A stretch of 64,000 nucleotides of DNA from assembly GCF_058153355.1 (NCBI RefSeq), contig NZ_CM177019.1; one strand, given 5' to 3'. Position numbers and translations under genes: made by a program. Shown piece by piece: positions 5,848 through 7,597 of the stretch (its first letter is position 1; the number at the start of each line of letters is the position of its first letter). Under the pieces are notes generated by a model. The model was given only the letters and a program-made list of their open reading frames with translations. It was not told the DNA's origin and made no database searches.

Positions 5848-6624
5848 ATGAAAATTACTCAAATTCGTAATGCCACCCAAATTATCCAATACGCTGGCAA
5901 AACATTTCTTATTGACCCGTTACTCGCGCCTAAAGGAAGTTATCCGGGTTTTGCCGGAACGGCACGCGCAGAAATCCGCAATCCAACGGTAGAATTACCG
6001 TGCGATTTAACAACGTTACTCAACGTTGACGCCCTAATAGTGACCCATTTGCATGAAGATCACTGGGACGAAACAGCCTCCCGCGTCGTCCCCAAAGATA
6101 AACAGATTTATGTGCAAAATGAGCAAGATGCTGAATCACTGCATAAACAAGGATTTACGCATCTTACCGTACTTGCCGACGAGACTAAATTTGGCGATAT
6201 TACTCTGCATAAAACGACAGGGCAGCACGGCTCCGATCGCACCTATGCAGACCCGGCTATGGCGAAGCGTTTAGGCGCAGCCTGCGGCGTTGTTTTCCAG
6301 CACCCGACAGAGAAAACGCTCTATCTGGCTGGCGATACCCTCTGGCGTGATGACGTCGAGGCTACAATGCTAACTTTCCAACCAGAAGTGGTGGTGTTGA
6401 ATGCCGGATTTGCGCATGTTCTGGGGCATGGCGCGATAATTATGGGAGCTGAAGATATTCTCAAAACACATTTCACCCTGCCAGAAGCGCAAATTGTCGC
6501 GACACATATGGAGGCCGTAAACCACTGTTTGCTGACGCGTGATGCTCTCAAGGAATACGCCAGAGATAATCAAATTATCGAATTTGTGAACGTACCAGAA
6601 GATGGTGAAACGTTGACATTCTAA
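5848..6624 (+). CDS. metallo-beta-lactamase-fold hydrolase (uncharacterised)
   Basis: ORF 5836-6624; ATG 5848 has a GGAG Shine-Dalgarno upstream; HxHxDH-type motif (VTHLHEDHWDE). Not present between mhpR and lacI in K-12 as I recall it. Confidence 0.65.
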   Translation: MKITQIRNATQIIQYAGKTFLIDPLLAPKGSYPGFAGTARAEIRNPTVELPCDLTTLLNVDALIVTHLHEDHWDETASRVVPKDKQIYVQNEQDAESLHKQGFTHLTVLADETKFGDITLHKTTGQHGSDRTYADPAMAKRLGAACGVVFQHPTEKTLYLAGDTLWRDDVEATMLTFQPEVVVLNAGFAHVLGHGAIIMGAEDILKTHFTLPEAQIVATHMEAVNHCLLTRDALKEYARDNQIIEFVNVPEDGETLTF

Positions 6625-6643
6625 TTCGGAGATAAAGAGTGTT

Positions 6644-7597
6644 ATGCGCCCGCTAACTGTTGCCATTATCGCCGTTGCCGGTTTTAGTCCTTTTCACCTT
6701 TCCGTACCGTTTATCGTGTTTAGCGAAAAAATGGCGGAGAAAAAACGCTTTCATGTAATTATCTGCGCTGAAAAGCCGGGAAATGTGGACTCTGCCGATG
6801 GGTTTTCCGTAACCGCCACCCATGACTATACGGCAGTCATCCAGGCGGATATTGTGATAATTCCTTACTGGGGAACAATTACACAAAAACCGCCACAAAA
6901 ACTGCTGGAAGCCTTAACGACCGCACGAGATAACGGGGCACAGATTGTCGGGCTTTGCCTGGGCACGTTTGTGCTCGGCTATGCAGGTTTACTGAACAAT
7001 AAGCGTGCTGCCACGCACTGGGAGTTCGAGCGTGAATTTCAGGCACGTTTTCCACAAACACATCTGGATATTAACGCGTTGTATGTAGACGATGATGGCA
7101 TTATTACCTCTGCCGGTACTGCCGCGGCGCTGGATTGCTGTTTGTATATTGTTCGGCAACATTTTGGCAGCGACTATGCTAACCATATTGCCCGACGGAT
7201 GGTCGTACCGCCATATCGCACCGGCGGTCAGGCGCAGTTTATAGAGCAACCGGTGCCGAAAAATACCCATGATGAACGCATTAACCTCCTGCTGGATTAC
7301 CTGCGGCAAAACATTACGCAACAGCATGATCTCGACTCGCTGGCTCAGCAAGTAATGATGAGTCGCCGCACACTAACCCGTCATTTTATGAAAGCGACCG
7401 GTTCGAGTATCGCCGAATGGCTCATCACTGAACGCTTACGCCGTAGCCAGGAACTGTTGGGATCCAGTCAGTTGCCCGTTGAGCGGATAGCGGCTGAGGT
7501 GGGTTTTCTCTCACCTGTGACCTGGCGTCAGCATTTTAAATCTCACTTCGGCGTCAGCCCCGCAGAATGGCGCAAAACCTTTCGTGGTATGGCATGA
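6644..7597 (+). CDS. GlxA-type regulator (DJ-1/PfpI domain plus AraC-family HTH)
   Basis: 317-aa ORF; N-terminal class-I glutamine amidotransferase-like region and C-terminal AraC HTH (MSRRTLTRHFMKATG...WRQHFKSHFGVSPAEWRK). Confidence 0.7.
   Translation: MRPLTVAIIAVAGFSPFHLSVPFIVFSEKMAEKKRFHVIICAEKPGNVDSADGFSVTATHDYTAVIQADIVIIPYWGTITQKPPQKLLEALTTARDNGAQIVGLCLGTFVLGYAGLLNNKRAATHWEFEREFQARFPQTHLDINALYVDDDGIITSAGTAAALDCCLYIVRQHFGSDYANHIARRMVVPPYRTGGQAQFIEQPVPKNTHDERINLLLDYLRQNITQQHDLDSLAQQVMMSRRTLTRHFMKATGSSIAEWLITERLRRSQELLGSSQLPVERIAAEVGFLSPVTWRQHFKSHFGVSPAEWRKTFRGMA

Follow-up and report, generated by a model that had tools for sequence, protein, structure and literature searches.

The O-island 19 genes z0443 and ovrA as a candidate ancestral SaxA-type isothiocyanate detoxification operon between mhpR and lacI in Escherichia coli

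O-island 19 of EHEC O157:H7 is an 1834-bp segment that holds the two genes z0442 (ovrA) and z0443 (reviews PMC8565820 and PMC10877973). According to these reviews, OvrA is an activator of ler that binds the sequence GACATTTAATGATAATG at the LEE1 promoter and favors adherence and colonization; the support that they summarize comprises EMSA, ChIP, and footprinting together with an ovrA mutant that is defective in adherence and colonization (PMC8565820, PMC10877973). The same reviews term z0443 "hypothetical" and report that its deletion caused no virulence phenotype (PMC8565820, PMC10877973).

The second group of described systems consists of the SaxA enzymes, known from the sax system of P. syringae, from Pectobacterium (PDB entry 6brm), and, in plasmid-borne form, from gut bacteria of the cabbage root fly. 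Isothiocyanates (R-N=C=S) are toxic "mustard oils" that arise from the glucosinolates of crucifers. SaxA converts an isothiocyanate to an amine and carbonyl sulfide and has a broad substrate range (PMC7303113), and Pectobacterium SaxA proteins that are 44.9% identical to each other cross-complement (PMC7036374). The Pseudomonas sax cluster also includes a regulator gene, saxC. Here, we compare both systems with a two-gene locus in a 64-kb stretch of E. coli DNA (the window). Our preferred reading, to which we assign a probability of roughly 0.6, is that the locus is an ancestral, self-activated SaxA-type isothiocyanate detoxification operon and that its regulator, OvrA, was later recruited to LEE1.

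The mhpR-lacI interval and O-island 19

A sequence-only reading of the window had given mhpR and lacI as adjacent in K-12 and described two additional co-oriented genes between them here. Both points hold: in K-12 MG1655, mhpR and lacI are separated by 76 nt and neither of the two genes is present at this position, and in the window the two genes lie at 5848-6624 and 6644-7597. The interval and its flanks are laid out as follows.

4900-5733, plus strand: mhpR, IclR-family regulator, left flank (Pfam HTH_IclR/IclR_C, RefSeq homologous loci, and K-12 alignment)
5848-6624, plus strand: saxA-like MBL-fold metallo-hydrolase gene, orthologue of O157:H7 z0443, 258 aa (Pfam Lactamase_B_2 and match to PDB 6brm)
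6644-7597, plus strand: ovrA (z0442 orthologue), GlxA-type regulator, 317 aa (Pfam and RefSeq gene name)
7634-8716, plus strand: lacI, right flank, with a GTG start and beginning 36 nt past the ovrA stop

The 258 residues of the hydrolase are counted from the ATG at 5848, which is preceded at a distance of 7 nt by GGAG; a GTG at 5836 is likewise open. The hydrolase gene and ovrA are co-oriented and separated by 19 nt, and a scan of 5600-7800 predicted no terminator either between them or between ovrA and lacI. Of 5426 complete E. coli genomes, 435 carry RefSeq annotations of the same two CDSs with identical start codons; both ORFs are real conserved genes and not chance ORFs.

Using megablast, the whole segment was matched in 435 of the 5426 genomes, with 97.7 to 97.8% identity to O157:H7, O55:H7, and O145:H28 and 99.6 to 99.7% identity to a small number of dog, goat, and food isolates. 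At the protein level, the hydrolase is 98% and the regulator 99% identical to the O157 proteins, and RefSeq names the regulator gene "ovrA: OI-19-encoded virulence regulator OvrA." The segment contains z0443 and z0442/ovrA, spans approximately 1.8 kb, occupies the mhpR-lacI interval, and is missing from K-12. We are virtually certain that it is O-island 19 of EHEC O157:H7, which has already been named and partly characterized; the feature is therefore known, and the observation of it in itself adds nothing new. Compared with O-island 19 of EDL933 and Sakai, the window has the same locus, the same mhpR and lacI flanks, and both genes at 97.7% DNA identity. It differs in that its lineage is not O157 and has diverged by ~5% from both K-12 and the majority of E. 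coli, and in one base just 5' of the ribosome-binding site (GCCATC in the window versus GACATC in O157). As for the remainder of the 64-kb window, it contains no LEE, and IS621 and repeats are located within 40000-44000. What goes beyond the published reviews is the kinship of z0443 to SaxA, the cross-species linkage of the two genes with an upstream element, and the ancestry and deletion states of the locus (cf. PMC8565820, PMC10877973). In searches of one literature library, we found no paper that ties z0443 or O157 to SaxA or isothiocyanate hydrolase.

The hydrolase, the regulator, and their linkage across species

The sequence-only reading had proposed a metallo-hydrolase and a DJ-1/PfpI-AraC fusion, and a Pfam search of both proteins bears this out. 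The hydrolase matched Lactamase_B_2 (2e-11) and, among PDB entries, 6brm, the "metal-dependent isothiocyanate hydrolase SaxA" (E 2.8e-87), and 3rpc, a Veillonella structural-genomics protein (E 1.8e-72). By BLASTP, the alignment to 6brm covers 258/259 residues at 54% identity with a single one-residue gap (E 7e-102). The HxHxDH motif corresponds to H67-L-H69-E-D71-H72, and no variation was seen at H67, H69, D71, H72, H127, D163, H220, or H226 when 14 diverse homologues were aligned; by analogy with the MBL family, we take the motif and the downstream His and Asp residues to be the metal ligands. In a neighbor-joining tree rooted on Veillonella 3rpc, 6brm is placed inside the clade of ovrA-linked homologues, with members from Serratia, Siccibacter, Erwinia, and Pseudescherichia as its neighbors, and the window hydrolase is sister to Citrobacter. 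The hydrolase thus has the features of the SaxA family, i.e., an MBL fold with metal-ligand residues, full-length similarity to the characterized SaxA, and membership of the same clade.

The likeness to the described SaxA systems therefore extends to the fold, a length of about 258 aa, collinearity at the stated identity, conservation of the HxHxDH motif and the further metal-ligand residues, and an associated regulator gene (saxC in Pseudomonas and ovrA here). The differences are that the predicted E. coli enzyme belongs to an enteric commensal/pathogen and not a plant pathogen, and that no sax efflux genes adjoin its gene. Moreover, the homologue in Stutzerimonas is 64 aa longer, and the E. 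coli protein has neither a signal peptide nor an N-terminal extension. Judged from these comparisons, z0443-type proteins probably have isothiocyanate hydrolase activity.

In OvrA, Pfam identified DJ-1_PfpI at residues 6-171 (5e-12) and HTH_18 at residues 233-311 (HTH_18/HTH_AraC, 3e-19). An N-terminal DJ-1/PfpI domain followed by a C-terminal double AraC HTH is the GlxA-type architecture, in agreement with the RefSeq product label at the locus ("GlxA family transcriptional regulator"). GlxA-type regulators such as GbdR sense a ligand and activate genes for catabolism or detoxification. OvrA shares its two-domain architecture with GbdR and with the NCBIfam "FtrA" proteins and differs from them in being linked to a saxA-like gene at the loci listed. 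We ruled out that OvrA is an equivalog of either, as its scores against FtrA (PRK09393; 323.3 bits, cutoff 425) and GbdR (127 bits, cutoff 480) are both below the cutoffs; a relation to FtrA remains.

The PDB matches of OvrA are the DNA-binding domain of AdpA and the isonitrile hydratase InhA, the latter aligning to the sensor domain over about 157 residues (E 7.5e-13). Among 76 OvrA orthologues, little or no variation was seen at G103-L-C105-L-G107, T124-H125-W126, E129, C165, and C166. Cys105 is located in the GLCLG nucleophile elbow and aligns with the equivalent Cys of isonitrile hydratases. The similarity to InhA, a member of the DJ-1 superfamily, thus includes the nucleophile-elbow Cys and the T-H-W that follows it and, if the isothiocyanate hypothesis holds, both proteins would deal with an N=C-type electrophilic carbon. 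InhA is a stand-alone enzyme and has no DNA-binding domain, and the alignment does not imply catalysis by OvrA. A plausible, albeit speculative, sensing mechanism for OvrA is that a thiol reacts with the isothiocyanate at its electrophilic carbon.

To describe the distribution of the pair, we searched one genome per species (GTDB representatives) with a profile of the hydrolase alignment and considered the best 80 loci, which come from 80 species. In 77 of these 80 best-listed species, a full-length OvrA orthologue is encoded directly downstream on the same strand (tblastn, 51 to 81% identity). The linked pair spans Enterobacterales, Vibrionaceae, and Marinomonas among the best 80 loci, and the genera include Citrobacter, Enterobacter, Klebsiella, Raoultella, Kluyvera, Photorhabdus, Proteus, Providencia, Pectobacterium, Erwinia, Serratia, Vibrio, Salinivibrio, and Marinomonas; almost none of the carriers among the matches listed are LEE-bearing taxa. 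No other Escherichia species is present among the best 80 loci, which is suggestive only. In one Stutzerimonas locus, the saxA-like gene is flanked directly on its 5' side by a GlxA-type regulator gene and on its 3' side by a bicupin gene, an order that matches the saxC-saxA-saxB arrangement of Pseudomonas. Conservation of the linkage in 77 of the 80 best-listed species argues that the saxA-like gene and ovrA are one unit.

Whether the substrate is indeed an isothiocyanate is a separate matter, because 54% identity to SaxA is no guarantee of the same substrate. The pair might instead act on a different small molecule, be it another electrophile, an isonitrile, a lactone, an ester, or a compound resembling thiocyanate or cyanate, and isothiocyanate hydrolysis might not be its physiological role in enterics. 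In agreement with this, the family extends to bacteria from the gut, from insects, and from the sea (Vibrio, Salinivibrio, Marinomonas, and Photorhabdus) that seldom encounter crucifers, the sensor domain of OvrA is nearest to isonitrile hydratase, and NCBIfam returned for the hydrolase only a generic "metal-dependent hydrolase" match, which is under its cutoff. Against it, the SaxA of 6brm nests in the same clade, SaxA proteins are reported to be broad-spectrum isothiocyanate hydrolases of which members less than 45% identical are interchangeable, and the family has no member with a known alternative substrate. On balance, we regard a different substrate as rather unlikely and retain isothiocyanate hydrolysis as the working function.

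The upstream element and predicted control of the gene pair

The 200 nt 5' of the hydrolase genes cannot be aligned between genera except for one block, which corresponds to 5751-5789 in the window. The block and the hexamer that follows it are as follows.

5751-5789, plus strand: candidate operator TTGGCCCATTCTCATCGTTATTCGCCCATTTGCCCACAT, 39 nt, conserved in multiple species, putative OvrA site
5810-5815, plus strand: TACGCT, a weak and tentative -10-like hexamer, from the anchored multi-species consensus

The block was found at a similar distance 5' of the saxA-like gene in 76 anchored species, in which its mean information content is 1.18 bits per position compared with 0.12 in the upstream and 0.29 in the downstream flank. 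A PWM of the block had a single match in the 64-kb window (score 53.8; next best, -3.3). The element contains the direct repeats TTGnCCCAAT and T(T/C)GCCCATT, 21 bp apart, and a third GCCCAC, and it ends 58 nt before the ATG of the hydrolase. TACGCT fits a weakly conserved TAnnAT about 20 nt downstream of the block, a distance at which the block abuts the -35 position. Direct repeats with a 21-bp spacing beside the -35 are the usual geometry of class II activators of the AraC family. A generic scan of 5600-7800 detected no sigma-70 site on the plus strand upstream of the hydrolase gene; such a scan is uninformative for an activator-dependent promoter. Based on its conservation and layout, the 39-nt element is probably the native operator of the module, and we consider that OvrA probably binds it. 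The suggestion in the sequence-only reading of a sensing and detoxification module is strengthened by the SaxA kinship, the conserved pairing (77 of 80 best-listed species), and this operator-like element.

The element might alternatively bind a factor other than OvrA, or act as RNA, for instance as an attenuator, in the leader of the hydrolase mRNA. It lies at least 58 nt 5' of the ATG and could thus in principle be transcribed, and it is dissimilar to the LEE1 footprint. Sakai LEE1 contains the published 17-nt OvrA site at -201 to -185 relative to the ler ATG as annotated, equivalent to -183 to -167 when counted from an upstream ATG, and this footprint, GACATTTAATGATAATG, bears no resemblance to the GC-rich conserved element. 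Therefore, either the specificity of OvrA is relaxed or another protein binds the conserved element. The block PWM had no match above background in the Sakai LEE1 upstream region (best score, 0.1) or in the whole 50-kb LEE locus (best scores overall, 0.1 to 0.9, versus 53.8 for the native site), so a shared OvrA site at saxA and LEE1 is not demonstrable. The arrangement of 21-bp direct repeats by the -35 is nevertheless the typical layout for an AraC-family activator, and the element co-occurs with ovrA orthologues across genera in otherwise unalignable surroundings. These features make it improbable that the element is something other than an OvrA operator.

With OvrA as the predicted binder, we propose the following mechanism. 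The saxA-like gene and ovrA would form a two-gene operon in which the SaxA-family MBL metal-dependent hydrolase most likely converts an isothiocyanate to an amine and carbonyl sulfide. The DJ-1/PfpI-like domain of OvrA, with its invariant nucleophile-elbow Cys, would sense the toxin or a related electrophile, upon which the double HTH would bind the direct-repeat element at 5751-5789 abutting the -35 and switch on saxA-ovrA. Control would thus be class II activation of the AraC type combined with positive autoregulation. The reported activation of LEE1 by OvrA in LEE-positive strains would be a secondary, lineage-specific recruitment. That an isothiocyanate is itself the inducer is possible, at somewhat less than even odds; in P. 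viridiflava, isothiocyanate induced saxA weakly and saxC not at all.

Deletion history of the locus and the lacI promoter

To determine the state of the locus across the species, we took a census of the junction in the 5426 complete E. coli genomes. The intact island is present in 435 genomes, a 99-nt relic of ovrA in 487, and a K-12-type junction with a 33-nt relic in 4465. The two relics map to the window as follows.

7499-7597, plus strand: 99-nt 3' end of ovrA, all that is left in 487 genomes (e.g., Nissle 1917 and CFT073-like strains), annotated by RefSeq as a GlxA-family pseudogene
7565-7597, plus strand: last 33 nt of ovrA, kept in K-12 and the 4465 genomes, codons E-W-R-K-T-F-R-G-M-A plus stop

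In the genomes with the 99-nt relic, yaiL abuts the relic and the mhp operon is also gone. Compared with K-12, divergence on the left starts exactly at the mhpR stop codon at 5731-5733 (TAG in the window and TGA in K-12), and on the right homology returns at 7565, inside ovrA. When the K-12 deletion junction was examined for microhomology, the 10 nt TGACACCATC that separate the mhpR codons from the relic were not convincingly traceable to either side. The relics are nested subsets of the intact ovrA, and the 99-nt relic cannot be derived from the 33-nt relic; therefore, at least two independent deletions occurred from an island-bearing ancestor.

Citrobacter has the same gene order. Among the matches listed, 17 Citrobacter species have the saxA-like gene; ovrA is intact in 16, and lacI is downstream in 15 of these. 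In the Citrobacter locus L019, the hydrolase gene is present and ovrA was undetected. In C. sedlakii, the order is exactly mhpR-saxA-ovrA-lacI, and the sequence of the junction between the 3' end of ovrA and lacI is conserved among Citrobacter, the window, and K-12. Taken together, the three states in the census and the gene order shared with Citrobacter argue that the module is very probably ancestral at this locus and that most E. coli, including K-12, lost the segment by deletion. The window is about 94 to 96% identical to K-12 throughout (blastn), and its bet region is 90 to 95% identical to 5162 genomes and 95 to 99% identical to just 26. The window therefore derives from a deep-branching lineage that kept the module and that we infer to be cryptic-clade-I-like.

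We rejected the possibility that the segment is a horizontally acquired genomic island. Its GC content (44 to 54%) is mildly below that of the flanks, the segment has no integrase, IS element, or flanking repeat, the order is syntenic with Citrobacter, and relics persist in island-negative strains. These findings bear on another reading of the segment, according to which OvrA would be primarily a regulator of LEE virulence genes on a horizontally gained, pathogen-specific O-island and z0443 an unrelated passenger. The EMSA, ChIP, and footprint data at LEE1 and the adherence and colonization defects of the ovrA mutant summarized in the reviews speak for such a role of OvrA, as does the observation that most of the island-bearing complete genomes sampled (of 435) belong to the O157:H7, O55:H7, or O145:H28 lineages, and the deletion of z0443 without a virulence phenotype reported in a review fits a passenger. 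On the other hand, the pair is kept in 77 of the 80 best-listed species, almost none of which are LEE-bearing taxa, and the synteny with Citrobacter together with the nested relics in K-12 and Nissle-type strains points to ancestry instead of horizontal gain. Furthermore, carriers of the island include dog, goat, fish, river water, and mink isolates, which may extend its range beyond LEE-positive strains, and the LEE1 site is unlike the conserved element upstream of the saxA-like gene. We therefore consider this account of the locus very unlikely and favor an ancestral detoxification operon.

The 3' end of ovrA overlaps the region that drives lacI. The lacI promoter is reported to consist of GCGCAA as the -35, the site of the Iq mutation, and CATGAT as the -10, with the mRNA beginning at GGAAGAG (Calos 1978, Steege 1977). 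These elements map to 7570-7575 (-35), 7593-7598 (-10), and 7606 (mRNA start) in the window, and the ovrA stop codon TGA at 7595-7597 is inside the CATGAT hexamer. If these positions are right, both hexamers fall in the last ovrA codons, and K-12 has kept a fragment of ovrA as its lacI promoter. Because no terminator was predicted between ovrA and lacI, read-through into lacI is possible in island-bearing strains. A combined and tentative proposal, which we judge as having a lower than even chance, is that the native role of OvrA is to activate the saxA operon in response to isothiocyanates or electrophiles, perhaps via Cys105, which would make LEE1 responsive to diet, and that the lacI promoter is an intragenic relic of ovrA.

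With these results, z0443, still "hypothetical" in the reviews, gains a concrete biochemical hypothesis as an isothiocyanate hydrolase, and OvrA gains a probable native target and a possible signal. If this is true, the link between OvrA and LEE1 would make EHEC attachment genes responsive to crucifer isothiocyanates derived from the diet. O-island 19 is recast from an "O157-specific island" to an ancestral module of the Enterobacteriaceae that has been lost from about 91% of sequenced E. coli, and this also explains where the sequence with the lacI promoter came from.

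The ovrA 3' end and the OvrA footprint at LEE1

The interval 7565-7606 holds what we take to be the classical lacI promoter (−35 GCGCAA, −10 CATGAT), located inside the final 11 codons of ovrA, the gene for the GlxA-type regulator; the −10 hexamer presumably includes the ovrA stop codon. The K-12 counterpart of this ovrA 3' end is the 33-nt remnant of the deleted gene, and the same ovrA-3'/lacI junction as in the window is conserved in Citrobacter.

We compared the conserved GC-rich element upstream of saxA-ovrA (76 species) with the published OvrA footprint in the LEE locus of O157:H7 strain Sakai (L086):

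L086, 45284-45500: LEE1 upstream region, with the footprint GACATTTAATGATAATG

The footprint overlaps the −35 TTGACA of the distal LEE1 promoter, and no similarity was found between it and the element.

Loci where no downstream ovrA was found; the nearby cyn operon

In two loci of the hydrolase scan, L019 (Citrobacter amalonaticus AUH_CA_2023_1) and L052, the saxA-like gene is kept and a downstream ovrA orthologue was not found. The former retains a high-scoring upstream element besides the saxA-like gene. Both are possible cases of regulator loss.

The saxA-like gene of the window lies ~8 kb away from the cyn operon, which includes the carbonic anhydrase CynT:

13996-16343: cynX, cynS, cynT

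Hydrolysis of isothiocyanates by SaxA-type enzymes yields carbonyl sulfide as a by-product, and this compound can itself be hydrolysed by carbonic anhydrases. The proximity of the two is probably a coincidence.

lacZ, neighbouring segments and lineage of the window

Comparison with K-12 and O157 identified a 2-bp deletion (GGCAA--TGCC) in lacZ:

8839-11911: lacZ, deletion near 9017-9018

The deletion splits the gene into a 79-aa and a 968-aa ORF, which suggests that the strain is probably Lac-negative or else that the sequence contains an error here. In the nearest genomes (98.7-99.0%), lacZ is intact.

Two further segments differ from K-12. In the yahK-yahJ interval, ~7.7 kb (32157-39896) lacks a K-12 counterpart; it contains ABC transporter genes and an IS66-family transposase. 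The yahI-yahG region is broken by an IS110-family (IS621-like) insertion (~42378-43657), which is also annotated in ~25 complete genomes:

32085-36521, minus strand: four genes for a sugar-type ABC transporter, coding for its periplasmic binding protein, its ATPase and two BPD_transp_2 permeases
37766-39337: IS66-family transposase, after the ABC transporter genes and between yahK and yahJ
42571-43551: IS110-family (IS621-like) transposase ORF

Over all genes shared with the window (1-64000), identity to K-12 is only ~94-96%. Among complete E. coli genomes, ~5200-5400 match the lacZ and betT-betB segments at 90-95% identity, and only 19-26 reach 95% or more. Judged by these identities, the source of the window appears to be a seldom-sequenced, deep-branching Escherichia lineage that resembles cryptic clade I and belongs to no mainstream phylogroup.
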